Below are positions 3 through 17,043 of a stretch of DNA of 64,000 nt, piece after piece. The stretch is taken from the NCBI GenBank assembly GCA_965284365.1, contig OZ260079.1, positions 456,836 through 520,835 on the forward strand, written 5' to 3'. Both the position numbers and the translations under genes were made by a program. The notes beneath the pieces were generated by a model. It saw nothing but the letters and a program-made list of their open reading frames with translations, was not told where the DNA came from and made no database searches. Source of the stretch: Phragmitibacter sp. Lineage in GTDB: Bacteria; Verrucomicrobiota; Verrucomicrobiia; Verrucomicrobiales; Verrucomicrobiaceae. Each line of letters begins with the position of its first letter. Within the stretch, counting starts at the first letter, position 1.

Positions 3-2093
3 GCCGCCAAGGAGCCGGAAGTTGAGCTGCCTTCTTCGCCACCAGAGGTTGTTTCAGTTCAAGCCCCGGATCCGGATCCGACCGAGTCAATCTCAGTGGA
101 AGTGCATGCCACTGCGGTGGCTGCTTTGGCAAGTGTTACGATACCAACACCAAAACCGGCACCGGTACCAACGCCGCCGTCATCTCCACCTGCACAGGAT
201 CTTCTTCAATCTTTACCGAAAGCGACGGGGCCGGTTGCCTCTCTTCCCTTGCCGACGAAAGCGCCATCGCGAGGCCGGCCCGACTTGCCGACTGCTTTTG
301 CTTCCACGCTGGAGTTGCCCCCTCTGCCTGCGATTGTTGCTGGAACTGAAAGCAAGGCGTTCACCGTATGGACGGAGGATGGTTGGCAGCCAACCCCTGT
401 CAGGTCATGGAAACAGCCTCCGGCCCGGGCATTCACGGTTTGGACGGAATATGTGCCCGTCATCATCCCGAAAGAGAAGCCTGCGCTTCCGGCAGGTGTG
501 TTTGTGACGTCACCGTCTCAGACACACACTCTTTCGGCCATCGCCGCCCTGCCCCTCATGCAGGACCCGCTGCCGGTGGAGCCGATGATCGTGGTCGATA
601 CTCCGCCGTCTGACTATGCTCCTCCATTTCCTCCTCCAAGTCAGGCCTTCGGCATTTGGACAGAGGAAAGCTGGCAGGCACCGTCATACTCCATCGCGCC
701 GCTTCCTGCCGGAGCAGGATTCTCCGTGTGGACGGACCACGGCTTTGAGCCAAGAGGCCGCAGCCCCCTGCCAGCGAGCCAGGCTTTCTCTGTCTGGACT
801 GAATCGGACTGGGTGATTCCCTTCGTATCACAGCCCCCCGCGCCATCCAGCGCGGCGTTCTCGCTTTGGACAGAGCCAGATTTTTCACCGCTGGGCCGAG
901 GGGCAATCATCCCGAGCACGGCCTTCAGTGTCTGGACGGAGCCAGGTTGGGAGCCTACTCCTGTTTATGGAGTTCCATTACCGCCCAGCCAGGCATTCTC
1001 GATCTGGACCCTGCCAGAATTTGAACCTCTGGGGCGGGGCCCGGTGATGCCCAGCCAAGCGTTTTGTGTTTGGACGGAAGCGGATTGGATTCCGTCTGTC
1101 TCTCCTTCATTTGTGTTACCCTCCAGCACAGCGTTTTCGATTTGGACGCTTCCGGAGTTCACGCCCCTGGCGAGAGGTCCTGTCCAACCCAGCCGAGCTT
1201 TCAGTTTGTGGATCGGGGAACCACCTGAACCTCAGGCAGCCATTACGTCCGCCGGAGTGAACGGTGTTTCCCCCCATCCCGCAGCGCCACCCGCGCCGGA
1301 AGCGAATTTTGTCCCTCCAGCCGCGCCCGCCAAAGCCAAGCATTCCAGCCAAAGCGCCATTGCCGCCGCGGCCGCAGCGGCCGTGAAGTCGGTTTCAACT
1401 CCTGTCCTCGGGAGCACTGCTGAGCAGCAGGCCGCAGCAGGTTCTGTAACCGTCGCGAAGGGGCAGCCGACTGGCAGAATCGTGCCTCGCAGCAGTTCCT
1501 CTCTCTTCTCACGAGCCTTTGCCGCGCTGAAAAGTGGTCTTGGCATTTTGCCGGACGCCATTTCACCGCCGCCGACCATTGTTGCGAAGCCAACCTCCGC
1601 CCCCAAGCCAGAGTCGCCGAAAATTTCGAAGAGCAAGGCTTTCACCCTTTGGACGGAAGCTCCGGCAGCGCCCGTTGTGCCGCCGGTTCGGCAGCGGGAA
1701 GCCCTGGCATCCATCATCGAGAGCCACTTCGCCTCAACCCCTGACTCCGTGACGCACGCAGTTCCGACCAATGCGATCGAGGCCTTTCAATCGGAGCTGC
1801 GAAACGGACTCATGCGCAATGATTTCCTGCTGGGTATGTTATACTTGCAGAAGCCTGCAGATGCTGATGATCTGACGCAGCTTCATGGGATCGCAGAGAC
1901 TTTGGAAAGGCACCTGCACAACCACGGGATTTTTACCTTCAAGCAGATTGCCTGGTGGACGCCGGACCAAGTGGAGAACTTTTCGCATCGTCTGGCGTTT
2001 GGTGATCGGATTCGCCGGGAGCGCTGGGTGGAACAAGCCAAAGCGCTACAAGCGGCAAAGACTGCGCCGCCCGCGCAGGAACGCGCGGTTTGA
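3..2093 (+). CDS. Pro-rich tandem-repeat protein with a helix-hairpin-helix-like C-terminal domain. It is 5'-partial: the frame is open to the window start.
   Basis: The 96..2093 frame has no stop back to nt 3, so the listed GTG at 96 is probably internal. It has about 12 copies of a ~22-24 aa unit with core 'QAFS(V/I)WTEP(D/G)W', spaced 66/72 nt across nt ~350-1240, plus one further copy at ~1637. The C-terminus 'DDLTQLHGIAETLERHLHNHGIFTFKQIAWWTPDQVENF' resembles a helix-hairpin-helix motif. Confidence 0.6.
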   Translation, partial: AAKEPEVELPSSPPEVVSVQAPDPDPTESISVEVHATAVAALASVTIPTPKPAPVPTPPSSPPAQDLLQSLPKATGPVASLPLPTKAPSRGRPDLPTAFASTLELPPLPAIVAGTESKAFTVWTEDGWQPTPVRSWKQPPARAFTVWTEYVPVIIPKEKPALPAGVFVTSPSQTHTLSAIAALPLMQDPLPVEPMIVVDTPPSDYAPPFPPPSQAFGIWTEESWQAPSYSIAPLPAGAGFSVWTDHGFEPRGRSPLPASQAFSVWTESDWVIPFVSQPPAPSSAAFSLWTEPDFSPLGRGAIIPSTAFSVWTEPGWEPTPVYGVPLPPSQAFSIWTLPEFEPLGRGPVMPSQAFCVWTEADWIPSVSPSFVLPSSTAFSIWTLPEFTPLARGPVQPSRAFSLWIGEPPEPQAAITSAGVNGVSPHPAAPPAPEANFVPPAAPAKAKHSSQSAIAAAAAAAVKSVSTPVLGSTAEQQAAAGSVTVAKGQPTGRIVPRSSSSLFSRAFAALKSGLGILPDAISPPPTIVAKPTSAPKPESPKISKSKAFTLWTEAPAAPVVPPVRQREALASIIESHFASTPDSVTHAVPTNAIEAFQSELRNGLMRNDFLLGMLYLQKPADADDLTQLHGIAETLERHLHNHGIFTFKQIAWWTPDQVENFSHRLAFGDRIRRERWVEQAKALQAAKTAPPAQERAV

Positions 2094-2334: not shown

Positions 2335-3246
2335 ATGAGCAAACCGACACTTCTGATTTTGGCAGCCGGGATGGGCAGCCGTTACGGCGGCTTAAAACAA
2401 TTGGATCCCATGGGGCCCGCAGGGGAGACTGTGTTGGACTACTCCGTGTTCGACGCGCTGAGAGGTGGTTTTGGCAAAGTGGTTTTCGTGATCCGCAAAG
2501 ACTTCGAAGAAGATTTCAAAACGAAGATCGGCAGCAAGTTCGACCAGAAGGTGCCAGTCCATTACGCCTTCCAGGCACTGGATGATCTGCCAGCAGGATT
2601 TACGGTTCCTGAAGGACGCACCAAGCCATGGGGCACAACGCAAGCCGTTCTGGCAGCAGAAAGCGAGATCAATGAGCCTTTCGCGATGATCAACGCTGAT
2701 GACTTTTACGGGCGTGATGCTTTTGCCAAGCTGGCGGCGAATCTGCAGACCCTCACGCCGAAAGACGGCAAGTCCCAGTATTCCATGGTGGGCTTCCAAC
2801 TGAAGAACACGCTTTCGGAACACGGCAGCGTGGCGCGTGGCGTCTGCACCAGCAAGGACGGCAAGCTGGCATCCGTGACCGAGATGACGAAGATCGTGAA
2901 GAAGCCGACCGGGGCCACCAATGAAGAAGATCCCGCGAACCCTGTAGAACTGACCGGCAATGAACTGGTGAGCATGAACTTCTGGGGCTTCACGCCAGAG
3001 ATTTTCCCGCAGCTTCATGAAGCGTTTGAAAAGTTCCTTAAGGCGCATGGGACTGAGGAGAAGTCCGAGTGCTATGTCCCCAAGGAAGTGGACGTGCTGA
3101 TCAATCAGGGTAAGGCGGATGTGGAAGTGCTGGAGACGAGCAGTTCCTGGTTTGGCGTGACGTATCCTGAGGATAAGGCTGTGGTAGTTGGGAGCATCAA
3201 GAAGCTGACGGATGCGGGAGAGTATCCTTCGCCGTTGTGGGGTTGA
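2335..3246 (+). CDS. sugar-phosphate nucleotidyltransferase (NTP_transferase family)
   Basis: N-terminal 'LILAAGMGSRYGG' matches the G-x-G-(T/S)-R nucleotide-binding signature of glucose-1-phosphate nucleotidyltransferase-like enzymes. 303 aa. Good codon periodicity. Confidence 0.65.
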   Translation: MSKPTLLILAAGMGSRYGGLKQLDPMGPAGETVLDYSVFDALRGGFGKVVFVIRKDFEEDFKTKIGSKFDQKVPVHYAFQALDDLPAGFTVPEGRTKPWGTTQAVLAAESEINEPFAMINADDFYGRDAFAKLAANLQTLTPKDGKSQYSMVGFQLKNTLSEHGSVARGVCTSKDGKLASVTEMTKIVKKPTGATNEEDPANPVELTGNELVSMNFWGFTPEIFPQLHEAFEKFLKAHGTEEKSECYVPKEVDVLINQGKADVEVLETSSSWFGVTYPEDKAVVVGSIKKLTDAGEYPSPLWG

Positions 3247-3404
3247 GGGCACTGCTTGGCTCGGGTGTTTGCCCGACTCTGAGATAGAATTCGTGTTTTT
3301 TGTTTTTGGATTGGCGATGGTTCCGTTGCGACGGGGCCATCGCCAATGTGTTTGAAGGGTGGTGCGATGGAGAGGGCTTCCGTTTGGTGAGTCTGGGACG
3401 GATT

Positions 3405-3490
3405 GAGGTCGGGAGTGGGCGGTATGCTTTCCTACCCGTCGGAGCAAGCTCCTCCAACCGAGCGGTAGCGAGCTACCGCACTCCGGGTCG
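3405..3490. repeat. ~85-nt structured intergenic repeat, copy 1
   Basis: Near-identical framework to 7993..8078: 'gtcgggagtgggc...cccgtcg..gcaagctcct..caac.ga.cggt.gc.agc.accgcactccggg'. The closing stem is ggagtg/cactcc, with internal hairpins. Confidence 0.5.
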
Positions 3491-12061: not shown

Positions 12062-12964
12062 ATGGATCCGGTGTTTCAGTCGCTCGCTGTGAGTATCGGC
12101 TTGCCGGTGCTGACGGCGGGAATCGTTTTGGTTCTGGCGGCGGTCGTCTGTGGCAGGCAGGCGACTTTCCGGACGACTGCGGGAATCAATGTGAATGGGG
12201 CCGTTGCGATGGGGTGCGGCCTGGGATTTGTGCTGGCGTTTTATTACGCGAATGGCTGGAAGGGGTGGCCGCCTAAAGATACCCTGCAGTGGCTCAGCGT
12301 GGCGGTTTTCCCGGCGATCCTGCTCGGGATCGTGGAAGGGCACACGCGGTTTGGTGTGTCGAAGTGGCGATGGCTTTTGCGCGTGCTGTTGTTAGGTGGA
12401 CTGCTAGTAACACAGTTGCTGCCGCGGTATCGATATCAGTGGAAGGAGGAGGCCGATGCGGTGCTTTACACGGTGGTTCTGCTGGCGCTTTGGATGGTGT
12501 TTTACGCAAGTCTGGAAGGCTGGCTGGAACGGCTGAAGGCTGGCTGGGCTGCGTTTGCGCTGATGGTGCTGGCCTCGGCTGTGAGCGTGACACTGGCGCT
12601 GAGTTCGAGCGCGTCTTTGGGGCAGACGACGGGCATGGCTGCTGCCGCTGCTGGGGCAGTGTGGTTTGTGACTTTGATCTGGAGACGAAGTTTGGCATGG
12701 AAGCGCGGGGCGCTGGCGATCTTTGGTATGCTGTTGCCTGCGCTGATGCTGAACGGGCGGTTTTATTCTGAGCTTAAGACGGACTGCGCGCTTTTGTTGT
12801 TGGCCAGTCCGGTCGTGGGTTGGCTGATCGGTGTGGGATTGCAGCGGTGGTTTCCGGGGCGGAGGTGGATTGGAGCGGCTCCGTTAGCGGGATTGCTGAC
12901 GGCCATTGCGGCTGTGATTCTGGCTTGGTCACGCTACGAGAGCCCGACTGAGTACGAGTGGTAG
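12062..12964 (+). CDS. polytopic membrane protein of unknown function (~8 TM)
   Basis: Hydrophobic helices throughout. No recognisable motif. Confidence 0.45.
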   Translation: MDPVFQSLAVSIGLPVLTAGIVLVLAAVVCGRQATFRTTAGINVNGAVAMGCGLGFVLAFYYANGWKGWPPKDTLQWLSVAVFPAILLGIVEGHTRFGVSKWRWLLRVLLLGGLLVTQLLPRYRYQWKEEADAVLYTVVLLALWMVFYASLEGWLERLKAGWAAFALMVLASAVSVTLALSSSASLGQTTGMAAAAAGAVWFVTLIWRRSLAWKRGALAIFGMLLPALMLNGRFYSELKTDCALLLLASPVVGWLIGVGLQRWFPGRRWIGAAPLAGLLTAIAAVILAWSRYESPTEYEW

Positions 12965-13014: not shown

Positions 13015-16000
13015 CTATTTCGCCGCGTCGACTTGTTGAAGATGAGTCTCCAGATCTTTGACGACATTGAGCTTGCCCCACATGATGGCGAAGTGACCGG
13101 GGAAAGTGCAGACGTATTCGTGCTGGCCGGGTTCTGCGGGAGCGCGCAGTTGCAGGCGTTCGGTCTGGCCGGGCTCCAACATGTGGGTGAAGCCTTTCTT
13201 CCAGATGACTGGCATGTCCGGGATGTAGAGGTAGCCCCGGCGATCGGGCGTGGCGGTCATGGTCATGGCCTTGGTGCCGACGTCCATGTGCGAGGGGCCA
13301 TCAATAAAGACGAGGTTGTGCGGCATGATATCGTTGTTTTCGAAGATGATCTCGAATGGCTTCCCTGCTTCCACGGTGAGGTCGATGGTGTCGTAGCGCA
13401 TCTGTTCGCGCACGGTTTTGATGACAAACACACTGACGCCGAGGTCGCGGAGGCCTTTGCGAATCGCGGCACCTGCTTCACCGGGAACCAGCTTGCCGAG
13501 CTCCAGACCGAGCTGGGAAACTTCCACGTAGGCTTGTTTGGCACGCTGATTGGCGGGAACGGTCTTGGCAAAAGCGAGAATGCTATCTGCCAGCGGCAAA
13601 GCTTGCGCCTTGTCCCATGAGGAGGGCGGCAATTGCATGATGGCACGAGCGACAAGATCACGATATTGACCGGCGAGGAGTAGTTTGGAGAGGAGCTTGA
13701 AATTGGTGGTCGCGTGATCAAGGCCGGTCAGGGCCGCGGCGGCGATGACGGGTTTCATGACGATGGGTGGCAAATTACCCGTCAAGCCTTCCTCGACAAG
13801 CGGTTGGAACTTGGCGCGTAGTGCCGGGTCAGGGATCAAGGCGACGCTTTCCATGAGCACGCTGAGAGTTTCATGATTGTCCTTCCGTCCTTCCCAAGTC
13901 GGCTTGGGGTCACCACTCATGCGGACGAAAGCAGCCATACCGGCGATACGAGCGTCGCGCACGCCGTGATCTTTGGTGGCGATGCGTGTGACGCGATCCT
14001 GTGCGGCTTTCAAGGCCTTCGGATCGGAGCCGGCCAGCAATTTGCCGAGATCGGCATAGACTGGGGTTTGCACTTGCTGGTCATCCAGGCGGATGAGGGC
14101 TGCGACGAGTTCGGCTTCACGAGAGGTTTTGCGAAGCTTGGCGAGATCCGTGGCGGCGCTGTCTTTGGTGGCGGAATCCAGGCCTTTACGCTCGATCTGA
14201 GCGGCTAACACGGCTTCCTCGCGAGGAGCCAATTTCAGTTCGTCGTTGGTCATTTTATCCAACACATAAGCCAAGGCGGCGGGATTCGACTTGATGTCGA
14301 TCTCCTGCGGCGCGGGCTTCAGAGCGCGCATGGTTTCCCCAAGCGTGTAGTTGAGGTAGTAATCCATGGGGTGTTTCAGCACCTCCAGGGCGGCTTCCGC
14401 AGCGGCAACGCGATCTGACTTCACAAGCTCTGCGATCGCGGGCAGTGTGCCGTCCATGGAAGCGAAGAAGCTGCAAGCGCGCACGGCTTCAAGGCGCACG
14501 AGCGGGCTTTCGTCATTGGCGGCTTTCTTCAGAAGGCTCAGAGCTTCCGGGATTCGGTCGCGCCAGTAGCAGAGCACGCGCACACCGGCGGCACGAGCCT
14601 CTGGTGTTTGGGCAGTCAACTGCTCCTTCAGCCACGCGGGATTGACGAGGTTGAGATACTGCTGCAGCCAGAGAACCTCGGTGATGAAGTGTTCATTCTT
14701 GGCGACGTTGTCGCTGTCGTCGTAAGCTTTGGCGTCGAGGCTCTTGAGAATTTCTTCCGCAGAACGTTTGCTGAGTTCGAGCTTGGCACGTTCGCGGGTG
14801 CGGAATTCGGGAGCCTTGAGGAGACTGATGAGTTCGTGGACGGAGGCACCATCAATTTTAGCTGGCTTCACCAAGGGCTTCTCCGTATTCCAGACACGCC
14901 AGATGCGACCATACTTGTGGTCACGAAGGGGATCACGAATGCTGTACTGCATGTGGCCGATGAGGGCTTCCGCCCAGTCCACGAGGTAAAGCGAGCCATC
15001 GGGAGCAAATTCCATGTCCACAGGACGGAAGTTCGGATCGCTGCTCAGCACTAGAGGTTCGATCTCCTTGGCCTCGTAGCCGGAACCGACGGCTTTCACC
15101 CTGTGATTCAGGGTGCCCTGGACACCGATGCAATTGTTTAGCAGGAAGTTTCCCTGCATGTCATCCGGGAAGTTGCGGCTGCTGACGAATTCGCAGCCGC
15201 TTGTTGGGCGGACACGCTTCGTGAGAAAGGTCTGCATCGCGCTGTGTTTTTCCGGAAAGGGCAGATAACCGCTAAAGGCTGTCGCGAAGTAATTGCTGCC
15301 GCCGGAGGCATCCGCGATGAAGGTCTGCCCCCATTGGTCGAAGGCGATGCCATGTGGATTTGCGTAGTTGTAGCTGACGAAGACGCTTAGTTTGTTGCTG
15401 AGAGGTTCGTAACGATAGGTGCCGGCATTAACACAGCGAACGGGACCATAAGGCGTCTCGACCTGGGTATTGTGGAAGGTGCCTTCCTGGAAATAGAGGT
15501 CACCGCCAGGGCCTTTAGTAAAGGCATTGATGACGTGATGGCTGTCCGCGCTATCGAAGCCGCTCAGCACGACTTCCCTGTCATCCGCTTTGTCATCACT
15601 GTTCGTATCCCGCAGCCAGACCAGATCCCGCTGGCTGCTGACCAGAATGCCGTCCTTGTAGAACTCAAAGGAGATGGGCAGGTGCAGGTTGTCAGCGAAG
15701 GTCTTGCAGGTGTTCGCCTTGCCGTCGTTGTCGGTGTCTTCGAGGATGATGATCTTGTCCTCGAATTCATCTCCGGGGCGCCACTGAGGATAACTGGGCA
15801 TGGTGCAGACCCACAGGCGTCCTTTAGTATCGAACGCCATGGATGTGGCATTGGCGAGTTCCGGAAACTGTTCTTCGCTGGCGAAACACTCGACCTTGAA
15901 ACCCTTGGCCGTGGTGAGCGATTTCAGCGTGTCGGCGACACTGGGAATCAACGCGGAGCCGCCCTCCGAGTTCTTGCTGGACTGACCGCGTTGCCCGTCA

Positions 16001-17043
16001 TCGGTTTTGCGCTGATTCACGCCGAACGAAGTCTTCACTTCGAGGAAAGGGGGCACATCGGAGTCATCAATTTTGTCGGGGACTGTCTCGCCTTGAGCCA
16101 ATTTCCAGATGCGCGCATCGCGATTGGCCGTCATGACATCGAGCACTTCGCGCTCGCGCTGCATGACGTCGCGATTGGTTTGATCGCCATCGGCGAACTT
16201 CAGACCGCTGCGGCCACCATAGACATAGTAGCTGTCCACGATGCGGTAGCGATTATACCACTTCTGGTTCTTCGACTCGATCTCGGTGCGGAGTTGTTGC
16301 TCGTTCAGTGCACCCAATTGTTTGACACTCTCCTCCGCCTTCCAGCCGAAAAGCGCTGCTTCTAAAAGCTGTGCGACTGCTTGGTCCCCCTTTGCGGTGA
16401 CATGGATGCCATTAAAGGTGTAGCTCTTGAAATCGCGGTCTGCCCCTTCGTTGGTGAAGAGCTTTCGGGTCGGGTGGTAGATATCTGCGAACGCGACGCC
16501 ATGCTCTTCCGCCACTTCTTTCATGGCTGCCGTGTAAAGCACGAGGCGCTCATTGATAGCTTTACCGTCCGGCAGATTAGGATCACCGAGGTTCTCGGCA
16601 GCGATGGGAGAGACCAGCGCGATGCGGGGAGCGCCTTTGCCGCTGTAGTCCTGCTCCTTGGTGTGCTTGATCCACTCGGTAAGGTCGGCTTTGAACTTCT
16701 CCACACCCTGCGGCCCCTGGAAGGACTCGTTGAAGCCAAAAAAGGCGATCACCACGTCCGCTTTGCTGAAGGTCAGGTGCTCGTCCGGCGTGCCGAAGCC
16801 TTCCGCACGGGGGCGCAAGGCGACTTCGTCTGCGGACCATGAAAGATTGCGCACGACCAAATTGTGTTTGGGAAACCGCTGATACAGGAGTGTTTCCCAG
16901 TGGTTATGCCTCTCGAACTGCATGCGCTCGGCCAGTGTGTTTCCGATGAGACAGATGTGGTCGCCGGGACGAATTTCCAAGGGTGCGGCCGGGAGCCGGA
17001 CTAGGGCGAGGCCGAGAAACAGAAAAGGAAGCAGGCGTTTCAT
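13015..17043 (-). CDS. large secreted PVC-type protein with four regions: an SGNH-like domain, a glucose/sorbosone-dehydrogenase-like beta-propeller, HEAT repeats and a C-terminal cupredoxin
   Basis: Signal peptide 'MKRLLPFLFLGLALVRL'. N-terminus has 'GDHICLIGNT...FFGFNES...ADIYHP' (SGNH-like blocks, with Ser replaced by His in block I). Propeller 'WLRDTNSDDKADDREVV...GIAFDQWGQTFIADASGG'. Long alpha-helical repeats. The C-terminus has the type-1 copper ligands His, Cys, His and Met in 'PHNLVF...CTFPGHFAIMWGKLNVV'. Confidence 0.65.
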   Translation of the reverse strand: MKRLLPFLFLGLALVRLPAAPLEIRPGDHICLIGNTLAERMQFERHNHWETLLYQRFPKHNLVVRNLSWSADEVALRPRAEGFGTPDEHLTFSKADVVIAFFGFNESFQGPQGVEKFKADLTEWIKHTKEQDYSGKGAPRIALVSPIAAENLGDPNLPDGKAINERLVLYTAAMKEVAEEHGVAFADIYHPTRKLFTNEGADRDFKSYTFNGIHVTAKGDQAVAQLLEAALFGWKAEESVKQLGALNEQQLRTEIESKNQKWYNRYRIVDSYYVYGGRSGLKFADGDQTNRDVMQREREVLDVMTANRDARIWKLAQGETVPDKIDDSDVPPFLEVKTSFGVNQRKTDDGQRGQSSKNSEGGSALIPSVADTLKSLTTAKGFKVECFASEEQFPELANATSMAFDTKGRLWVCTMPSYPQWRPGDEFEDKIIILEDTDNDGKANTCKTFADNLHLPISFEFYKDGILVSSQRDLVWLRDTNSDDKADDREVVLSGFDSADSHHVINAFTKGPGGDLYFQEGTFHNTQVETPYGPVRCVNAGTYRYEPLSNKLSVFVSYNYANPHGIAFDQWGQTFIADASGGSNYFATAFSGYLPFPEKHSAMQTFLTKRVRPTSGCEFVSSRNFPDDMQGNFLLNNCIGVQGTLNHRVKAVGSGYEAKEIEPLVLSSDPNFRPVDMEFAPDGSLYLVDWAEALIGHMQYSIRDPLRDHKYGRIWRVWNTEKPLVKPAKIDGASVHELISLLKAPEFRTRERAKLELSKRSAEEILKSLDAKAYDDSDNVAKNEHFITEVLWLQQYLNLVNPAWLKEQLTAQTPEARAAGVRVLCYWRDRIPEALSLLKKAANDESPLVRLEAVRACSFFASMDGTLPAIAELVKSDRVAAAEAALEVLKHPMDYYLNYTLGETMRALKPAPQEIDIKSNPAALAYVLDKMTNDELKLAPREEAVLAAQIERKGLDSATKDSAATDLAKLRKTSREAELVAALIRLDDQQVQTPVYADLGKLLAGSDPKALKAAQDRVTRIATKDHGVRDARIAGMAAFVRMSGDPKPTWEGRKDNHETLSVLMESVALIPDPALRAKFQPLVEEGLTGNLPPIVMKPVIAAAALTGLDHATTNFKLLSKLLLAGQYRDLVARAIMQLPPSSWDKAQALPLADSILAFAKTVPANQRAKQAYVEVSQLGLELGKLVPGEAGAAIRKGLRDLGVSVFVIKTVREQMRYDTIDLTVEAGKPFEIIFENNDIMPHNLVFIDGPSHMDVGTKAMTMTATPDRRGYLYIPDMPVIWKKGFTHMLEPGQTERLQLRAPAEPGQHEYVCTFPGHFAIMWGKLNVVKDLETHLQQVDAAK

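Follow-up and report, generated by a model that had tools for sequence, protein, structure and literature searches.

A tryptophan-motif repeat family in a rare protein of Verrucomicrobiales, possibly a membrane-anchored cytoplasmic scaffold

The gene and its Trp-motif array

The stretch of DNA considered here (the window) comprises 64,000 nucleotides (nt) of a Phragmitibacter sp. genome (assembly GCA_965284365.1, contig OZ260079.1, positions 456,836 to 520,835) and opens inside a gene for a Pro-rich protein that carries an array of short tryptophan (Trp) motifs. An uninterrupted frame of 696 codons is closed by a TGA stop codon at 2091–2093, and its translation matches the last 696 residues of an 878-amino acid (aa) database protein, P0001, at 100% identity (Table 1). 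This match to the C-terminal part of a longer protein shows that the gene extends past the window start, and the window lacks the first 182 residues of P0001, which are encoded upstream.

Twelve copies of the motif A-F-[ST]-[VIL]-W-T-E, located with the regular expression [AG]F[TSGC][VILF]W[TI]x, are present in the window protein, 11 in an array and one on its own. They start at nt 357, 429, 645, 717, 783, 855, 921, 993, 1059, 1131, 1197, and 1638, i.e., successive copies are 24, 72, 24, 22, 24, 22, 24, 22, 24, 22, and 147 residues apart. The first two copies form a separate pair followed by the 72-residue gap, and copies 3–11 follow an exact alternation of 72 and 66 nt that gives a super-repeat of 46 aa. 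Each super-repeat contains an A-type motif, AF[SGC][VI]WTExxW, a fixed step of 24 residues to a B-type motif, AFS[VLI]WT[ELD]xxF, and then 22 residues. When the motif was defined more strictly and all six frames of the 64 kb were scanned, it occurred 10 times, always inside the open reading frame (ORF) at 3–2093; by our own estimate, chance would give about 0.1 in such a scan. The window fragment as a whole is rich in Pro (15.5%), Ala (13.8%), and Ser (10%) and contains 3% Trp; within the arrays Trp rises to 6–10% and Pro makes up 14–20%.

The array is ancient and not the product of recent slippage. Its super-repeat units are pairwise 45–61% identical in DNA and 41–63% identical in protein, where two units agree in a residue the codons differ in more than half of the cases, and Tandem Repeats Finder reported no DNA repeat of this period in the array. 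The low DNA identity, the synonymous scrambling and the lack of a repeat at the DNA level together imply that the array is old and has been held by selection on the protein. Most of what a first-pass annotation, made from the letters of the window, had proposed for this region is borne out: a gene continuing beyond the window start, its missing N-terminus now recovered through P0001; about 12 tandem Trp repeats, of which the regular expression finds 12; an alternation of 66 and 72 nt with a super-repeat of about 46 aa, exact for copies 3–11; an extra copy at about 1637, present at nt 1638; and an old, maintained and diverged array. Its reading of the frame as coding, and of the repeat as one without a family name, likewise agrees with the database searches described below.

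Table 1. Features of the Trp-repeat gene, its upstream partner genes and neighbouring ORFs. Positions are those of the window unless a locus is named.
Position	Strand	Feature	Basis or remark
		Upstream 182 residues (outside the window): short outside tail, transmembrane helix, coiled coil, start of acidic linker	
3–2093	+	Coding sequence, C-terminal 696 residues and stop	Open frame, 100% match to P0001
3–350	+	Pro/Ala-rich linker without repeat motif, poorly conserved, length variable among homologues	Alignment A1 columns 100–340 mostly gaps; AF2 pLDDT 32–48
351–452	+	First Trp-motif pair, SKAFTVWTEDGW and ARAFTVWTEY, 24 residues apart	
453–632	+	Non-repeat insert between first pair and main array; GVFVTSPSQTH shared with homologue P0002	
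633–1184	+	Four 46-aa super-repeats (633–770, 771–908, 909–1046, 1047–1184)	Nucleotide identity 45–61%
1188–1226	+	Eleventh, degenerate motif PSRAFSLWIGEPP, closing the array	
1347–1397	+	Conserved Ala-rich segment SQSAIAAAAAAAVKSVS	A1 columns ~820–840; short low-confidence AF2 helix
1500–1547	+	Conserved amphipathic helix SLFSRAFAALKSGLGI, family consensus GFFARxxAAAxxALGL	A1 consensus; AF2 helix at P0001 residues 684–694
1626–1664	+	Solitary twelfth Trp motif SKSKAFTLWTEAP, kept in most family members	
1767–2090	+	C-terminal globular domain: short helix, beta-hairpin, (HhH)2-like helical bundle	
1812–1844	+	Beta-hairpin MRNDFLLGMLY	
1866–1958	+	HhH core DDLTQLHGIAETLERHLHNHGIFTFKQIAWW	
2007 (start)	+	Terminal helix RIRRERWVEQAKAL	
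2335–3246	+	Nucleotidyl-transferase gene	241-nt spacer after the Trp-repeat gene
2392–3447	-	351-aa ORF antisense to the nucleotidyl-transferase gene	No Pfam match
12062–12964	+	300-aa ORF flanked by a YceI-like gene and the gene for the large DUF7133 protein	No Pfam match at E ≤ 1e-5
13015–17043	-	1341-aa protein: GDSL lipase-like, DUF7133, HEAT repeats, plastocyanin/azurin-like copper-binding domain	
L001 4262–5581; L002 6727–8001; L003 1797–3098; L005 997–2397; L006 6727–7983; L010 4732–5985		Upstream partner genes at homologous loci	

Homologues and conservation of the motif

The gene is real and conserved, with homologues across the family. A word-index homology search retrieved 26 proteins at E ≤ 1e-3, counting the 100%-identical P0001, and an exhaustive search of 1.84 billion cluster representatives with a profile of the 46-aa super-repeat (alignment A4) gave 40 proteins at E ≤ 1e-3, 26 of them at E ≤ 1e-10. 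The homologues are full-length at 35–45% identity and conserve the N-terminal, repeat and C-terminal parts as well as synteny. Few of their sources have names, i.e., metagenome-assembled genomes (MAGs) assigned to Roseimicrobium, Phragmitibacter, and a “Verrucomicrobiales bacterium”, and a four-sequence alignment (A3) searched against the genome collection matched a single locus, in a Phragmitibacter MAG; the genome that the window comes from is not part of this collection. The protein has so far turned up only in Verrucomicrobiales. In the 90%-identity cluster of one 784-aa homologue, P0027, there are also many members of 51 aa, on up to 71 contigs, and these are probably fragments called at contig ends.

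The order of elements is shared throughout alignment A1. The N-terminus consists of a short tail with an invariant D-A-x-x-Y-F, a hydrophobic helix of about 30 residues and a Lys/Arg cluster (RYKRRFR), and is followed by a short coiled coil (LKxEVAxLKRRIAEQ), the variable linker and the Trp array. After the array come the Ala-rich patch, the amphipathic helix, one more Trp motif and, in most members, a C-terminal domain of about 100 residues; the amphipathic helix is retained in homologues without that domain.

Centred on tryptophan, the family motif reads PPSxAF[ST][LVI]WTExDW. In A-type copies W4 is conserved in 100%, W9 in 96%, T5 in 93%, F1 in 77%, and A0 in 74%, and prolines are frequent at positions +11, +18, and +20 of the linkers. 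Among 25 homologues the spacing from A to B motif is exactly 24 residues in 101 intervals, the spacing from B to A floats between 18 and 23 residues, and a protein has about 5 to 13 copies. Proteins of other architecture carry the motif as well: in P0036 and P0047 the repeats come before a transmembrane helix, which in turn precedes a coiled coil, P0042 has five PPSRAFTVWT copies on the Lys/Arg-rich side of its transmembrane helix and then a long coiled coil, and P0037 is a coiled-coil protein with three copies of LPPGAGFSVWTEEDWxPP in which no hydrophobic helix was seen. The loci of two more motif-bearing proteins, P0058 and P0057, have no common neighbour that could be a receptor.

No described family accounts for the repeat. 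Pfam has no family at E ≤ 1 for the window fragment, and scans of the C-terminal domain by itself and of the N-terminal 208 residues gave nothing beyond a chance match to TMEM192 at E 0.21; NCBIfam matches are confined to residues 611–686, with none on the Trp repeat; and the repeat profile gave chance matches only among PDB sequences, the best at E 0.5. The PADLOC defence models matched neither the Trp-repeat protein nor its upstream partner, and a literature search returned nothing relevant on a Trp-rich repeat in Verrucomicrobia or on the NuoE extension discussed below. The repeats constitute an undescribed family in a rare, lineage-specific protein that is built on a known general plan. 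Two weak profile matches, P0039 (916 aa) and P0052 (882 aa), were rejected as members; both are built from long, almost perfect tandem repeats, unrelated in sequence, in which “AVSLWTQEG” or “AFCVWTV” happens to occur, and are probably translated repetitive DNA.

Membrane topology and predicted structure

Across 41 sequences of the family, the segment before the transmembrane helix carries on average 0.3 Lys/Arg, with two to three Asp/Glu, and the 15 residues after the helix carry on average 4.5 Lys/Arg. The N-terminal part on the outside is short, about 5–20 residues. By the positive-inside rule this asymmetry places the bulk of the protein in the cytoplasm, and we infer a bitopic inner-membrane protein with the N-terminus out and the C-terminus in (N-out/C-in) and with cytoplasmic repeats. 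A cytoplasmic placement agrees with an end domain that is common to the cytoplasmic proteins NuoE, L21, S2, and PhaH, and with the presence of the motif on P0037.

AlphaFold2 (AF2) was run on alignment A1, with a multiple sequence alignment of 17 sequences only. It predicted a confident N-terminal helix at residues 3–68, with a predicted local distance difference test (pLDDT) score of 88–96, and a confident C-terminal domain (pLDDT 81–93), and gave no structure for the Trp array, where pLDDT was 28–40 in all five models. The first-pass annotation had posed the choice between a repeat solenoid and a disordered chain; for the array the models point to the latter, within the limits of a 17-sequence alignment, and the leading reading is that the array would lack structure and display linear motifs on a disordered chain.

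The C-terminal domain

The predicted fold of the C-terminal domain is a compact bundle of five helices, with two helix-hairpin-helix (HhH) motifs and a connector helix, which is the arrangement that defines (HhH)2, and the domain is confidently predicted to fold in this way. NCBIfam aligns residues 611–686 with the last ~66–75 positions of four equivalog models, NuoE (2e-17), L21 (1e-13), PhaH (1.7e-12), and S2 (3e-11), with the NCBIfam matches as a whole spanning 2e-17 to 2e-10; the cut-offs that these models set for whole proteins are far from reached, i.e., 63.8 versus 514 bits for NuoE (NF009040) and 48.1 versus 250 bits for PhaH (NF045508). With the family profile, two PDB sequences, 8yy9_O and 9wqv_a, matched at E 1e-13 and 2e-11. 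The former is protein-O of the Dinoroseobacter shibae RC-LH1 and the latter is Urf1/protein-3h of the Rhodovulum sulfidophilum LH1-RC. A terminal helix GRIxRERWVEQAK (R-E-R-W-V-x-Q-A-K) is common to the relatives, and the likeness runs across a domain of about 65 residues. Judged by sequence, the end domain has homologues at the C-termini of alphaproteobacterial NuoE, L21, S2, Urf1/protein-O, and the phasin PhaH.

A word-index search with the 97-aa C-terminal domain alone gave no candidate. A search with a profile of the domain (A5) retrieved small proteins in which a membrane helix, a coiled coil or linker and the HhH domain follow each other, three of them with Pfam PF14520 HHH_5. Five of the small proteins, P0069 and P0071–P0074 (157–200 aa), come from outside Verrucomicrobia and consist of an N-terminal membrane helix, a coiled coil or an Ala/Pro/Lys linker, and a PhaH-type HhH domain. 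Their plan matches that of the published Urf1/protein-O (PMC12079452, PMC13066640), and together they seem to represent a general class, as yet uncharacterised, of HhH proteins tethered to the membrane.

In the first-pass annotation the C-terminus had been likened to a DNA/RNA-binding HhH motif, with DUF4332 as a possible match. The HhH assignment holds in the AF2 fold and in the homology to the PhaH/NuoE domain; the isolated C-terminal 107 residues gave no Pfam match at E ≤ 10, neither to an HhH model nor to DUF4332. Nucleic acid binding may be carried over by homology from Caulobacter PhaH, while the first hairpin is not the canonical G-h-G; it reads H-G-I-A in the window protein and G-[IV]-[AST] in the family, as compared to G-[IV]-G in the alphaproteobacterial relatives. 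A 2025 review reports that PhaH of Caulobacter attaches to poly-hydroxybutyrate (PHB) granules through its N-terminus and to DNA, non-specifically, through its HhH end (PMC13052382, citing Salinas et al. 2023; also PMC12678847). This is the sole functional statement at hand for the domain family and it is transferred here with caution. The acidic-repeat (HhH)2 domains AR1 and AR2 of NusA are 14–18% identical to the window domain. Such AR domains are mainly protein-protein modules that contact the C-terminal domain of the RNA polymerase alpha subunit, lambda N, and SuhB, and the (HhH)2 fold alone therefore does not predict DNA binding.

Genomic context

At six homologous loci (L001, L002, L003/L004, L005, L006/L007, and L010) a gene for a protein of 417–466 aa lies immediately upstream of the Trp-repeat gene on the same strand, and the junction between the two ranges from a 4-nt overlap to a 20-nt gap. 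In this upstream partner a membrane helix at the N-terminus is combined with a BON domain and, at the C-terminus, an OmpA-like domain; the Pfam scores lie at or near the gathering threshold. Its architecture is reminiscent of Mycobacterium tuberculosis ArfA/OmpATb. Besides its BON-like domains and weak OmpA-like domain, faint matches to the BON-like ring-building domain of YscD/CdsD were observed in the partner. A PfkB-family gene is found divergently upstream at the homologous loci, and the same nucleotidyl-transferase gene lies downstream in most of them.

The pairing with the partner persists in P0022 (519 aa) and P0024 (455 aa), complete homologues that have no HhH domain and keep all else. 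The invariant module is thus a wall-binder gene together with a gene for the transmembrane helix, coiled coil and Trp array, and the HhH domain is an add-on to this two-gene module.

In the window the spacer after the stop codon contains no terminator-like site and two weak promoter-like matches (9/12). Beyond the nucleotidyl-transferase gene follow genes for an esterase, an SMP-30-like protein, and a PAS histidine kinase/LuxR regulator pair, and then ordinary chromosomal genes. For the ORF that runs antisense to the nucleotidyl-transferase gene, the likeliest explanation is a shadow ORF of a gene rich in GC. Two further minus- and plus-strand ORFs were noted at some distance, at 13015–17043 and 12062–12964, respectively (Table 1).

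Discussion

On our best reading, which we propose tentatively, the Trp-repeat protein would be a wall-linked, membrane-anchored cytoplasmic scaffold or tether of multivalent kind. A periplasmic tail of about 5–20 residues, one transmembrane helix, a Lys/Arg cluster, and a short coiled coil would then lead into a cytoplasmic remainder in which the Trp motifs serve as docking sites for a putative cytoplasmic partner, acting as A/B pairs at a fixed distance. The HhH domain may provide a second attachment, most plausibly, if PhaH is a guide, to DNA of the nucleoid in a non-specific manner. The transmembrane helix and the conserved stub on the outside would contact the co-transcribed, membrane-anchored BON/OmpA-like protein, and that protein may tie the assembly to peptidoglycan.

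Several observations weigh against this proposal. The topology has been predicted with the positive-inside rule as its one source, and the term “disordered” comes from the 17-sequence AF2 run, in which a fold could have been missed. A charge-hydropathy plot did not class the array as disordered, and is itself uninformative as it put every region, obvious linkers included, on the “folded” side. A chain with 6–10% Trp in addition to Phe, Val, and Leu would be unusually hydrophobic for a disordered one, and the rigid 24-residue spacing may suit a small folded unit at least as well as independent motifs. The upstream partner is known from the six homologous loci, as the window itself starts inside the Trp-repeat gene. 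With regard to the HhH domain, the failure to reach any Pfam HhH model, the G-I-A in place of G-h-G in the first hairpin, and a net charge of about -1 make it conceivable that DNA binding may not be retained. In the two papers on Urf1/protein-3h and protein-O the function of the domain is termed obscure or unknown, and the domain is unresolved in both structures (PMC12079452, PMC13066640). As P0022 and P0024 are complete and lack the domain, attachment to DNA or the nucleoid cannot be the core function of the family.

The fixed spacing is the main argument for a serious rival, which we nevertheless consider rather unlikely, that the Trp repeats are a new folded repeat in which each A/B pair makes up a small unit, e.g., a Trp-zipper-like hairpin on polyproline, and the whole a rod or solenoid serving as a rigid spacer or in ligand binding. 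An A-to-B distance without a single deviation in 101 intervals, the conserved prolines at linker positions 11, 18, and 20, the high aromatic and aliphatic content with its position on the “folded” side of the charge-hydropathy plot, and short low-confidence AF2 strands on two adjacent motifs are what such a unit might leave behind, and an alignment of 17 sequences could hide a new fold from AF2. On the other hand, the array scores a pLDDT of 28–40 in all five models next to confident flanks, prolines amount to 14–20% and are spread over every unit, close homologues differ freely in their B-to-A linkers and copy number, and the motif is also found singly or, as in P0037, in threes with long unrelated linkers. 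It is unlikely that the motifs have no specific partner at all and are aromatic “stickers” that lay the chain on the cytoplasmic face of the membrane or drive its self-association into a condensate or mesh. Tryptophan does prefer membrane interfaces, the aromatic residues are evenly spaced by Pro/Ser-rich spacers, and a membrane anchor, a coiled coil able to multimerise, and a conserved amphipathic helix are all at hand. However, stickers would not demand that A, F, S/T, an aliphatic residue, W, T, and E each be kept, which goes far beyond “an aromatic residue”, the conserved acidic residues beside the Trp would repel an anionic membrane, and a spacing fixed at 24 residues is not predicted by this model.

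If the topology were reversed, the protein could span the periplasm in the manner of TonB or TolA, and the Trp repeats, along with the OmpA-like neighbour, could touch the outer membrane, peptidoglycan or polysaccharide. TonB has a similar plan of an N-terminal anchor and then a Pro-rich region, modules that bind cell wall or sugars commonly contain aromatic repeats, and the gene stands in an operon with a periplasmic BON/OmpA-like protein and near other envelope-related neighbours (PfkB, ABC-transporter, and CTP-transferase domains). We regard this as very unlikely given that the Lys/Arg asymmetry, 0.3 versus 4.5, is strong and universal in the 41 sequences, that the end domain has its homologues in cytoplasmic NuoE, L21, S2, and PhaH, that Pfam scans found no TonB_C or other periplasmic domain, and that the motif recurs in P0037, a protein without apparent membrane helix or signal peptide. 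It is a negligible possibility that the frame is non-coding, with repeats that stem from translating a DNA repeat or from the shadow of another frame. Overlapping shorter ORFs on both strands lend it no support, since they are expected at about 60% GC, and the idea is refuted by full-length homologues that conserve all parts and the synteny, and by an array that shows no repeat in its DNA and a synonymous scrambling indicative of purifying selection.

A membrane-anchored cytoplasmic scaffold of the kind proposed would have counterparts of several sorts among known proteins. The relationship to PhaH, to the extensions of NuoE, L21, and S2, and to Urf1 is one of homology and is confined to window residues ~611–686; Urf1/protein-O and the small proteins P0069 and P0071–P0074 also share with the window protein a domain hung from a membrane anchor by a long linker. 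The rest of the window protein is unrelated to PhaH, NuoE, and Urf1, it has an extra beta-hairpin (RNDFLLG) before the domain and G-I-A instead of G-h-G in the hairpin, and whereas those hosts are Alphaproteobacteria, the window protein belongs to Verrucomicrobiota, where the domain is dispensable in part of the family. The polar landmark proteins HubP/FimV, as portrayed in PMC8789113, unite a periplasmic module for peptidoglycan binding with one transmembrane helix, flanked by a coiled coil, and a long cytoplasmic region of repeated acidic modules that recruit clients. Here the likeness is an analogy in the working plan, with no relationship in sequence: HubP/FimV carries its LysM in the same chain, whereas the wall binder is here a separate BON/OmpA-like polypeptide, and its Asp/Glu-rich repeats and FimV/TPR end domain are replaced by Trp/Pro repeats, with no such end domain in the Pfam scans.

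The N-out/C-in plan with a Pro-rich tether is rare and is shared with ZipA, again without any relationship in sequence. ZipA is a bitopic N-out/C-in protein in which a long, Pro-rich, unstructured tether ends in a small globular domain. The FtsZ-binding domain ZipA_C was not found in the window protein by Pfam, the end domain being (HhH)2, and the ZipA linker has no repeated motif. TonB is oriented the other way, N-in/C-out with a TonB_C domain, as opposed to the N-out/C-in that the charge bias predicts for the window protein and its lack of a TonB_C match in Pfam. Arrays of Trp motifs are found in unstructured regions of eukaryotic adaptors, e.g., Trp-acidic motifs for kinesin light chain and DPW or WxxF motifs for clathrin adaptors. 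They resemble the window protein in having many short motifs of Trp plus acidic residues on a Pro-rich, membrane-attached chain without a predicted fold, and the parallel is conceptual only, as the motif sequence differs and the window protein is bacterial. New here are the family-wide architecture, the predicted cytoplasmic placement, the fixed 24-residue pairing, the motif in other architectures, the identification of the end domain, and the BON/OmpA-like partner.

It is tempting to speculate further, although we think it improbable as a whole, that the two-gene module is a previously unknown envelope-to-cytoplasm hub of Verrucomicrobiales, in which the pairs with their 24-residue “ruler” grip a periodic or dimeric structure in the cytoplasm, such as a cytoskeletal filament or coat, and the HhH domain, where present, holds the nucleoid. 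Were this true, the family would represent a new class of short linear motifs plus its receptor. Even if the function turns out to be mundane, what is left is a clean new repeat family suitable for Pfam. To our knowledge very few arrays of short linear motifs have been described in bacteria, and the cell organisation of Verrucomicrobia is poorly understood. The Trp motif is sharply defined, strongly selected and present in multiple copies in at least three protein architectures, and it could serve directly as bait for a receptor. The family furthermore extends the PhaH/NuoE/Urf1-type HhH domain beyond Alphaproteobacteria, and the recurrent plan of membrane anchor, linker and HhH domain suggests that membrane complexes may be tied in a general way to the nucleoid or to another common partner.

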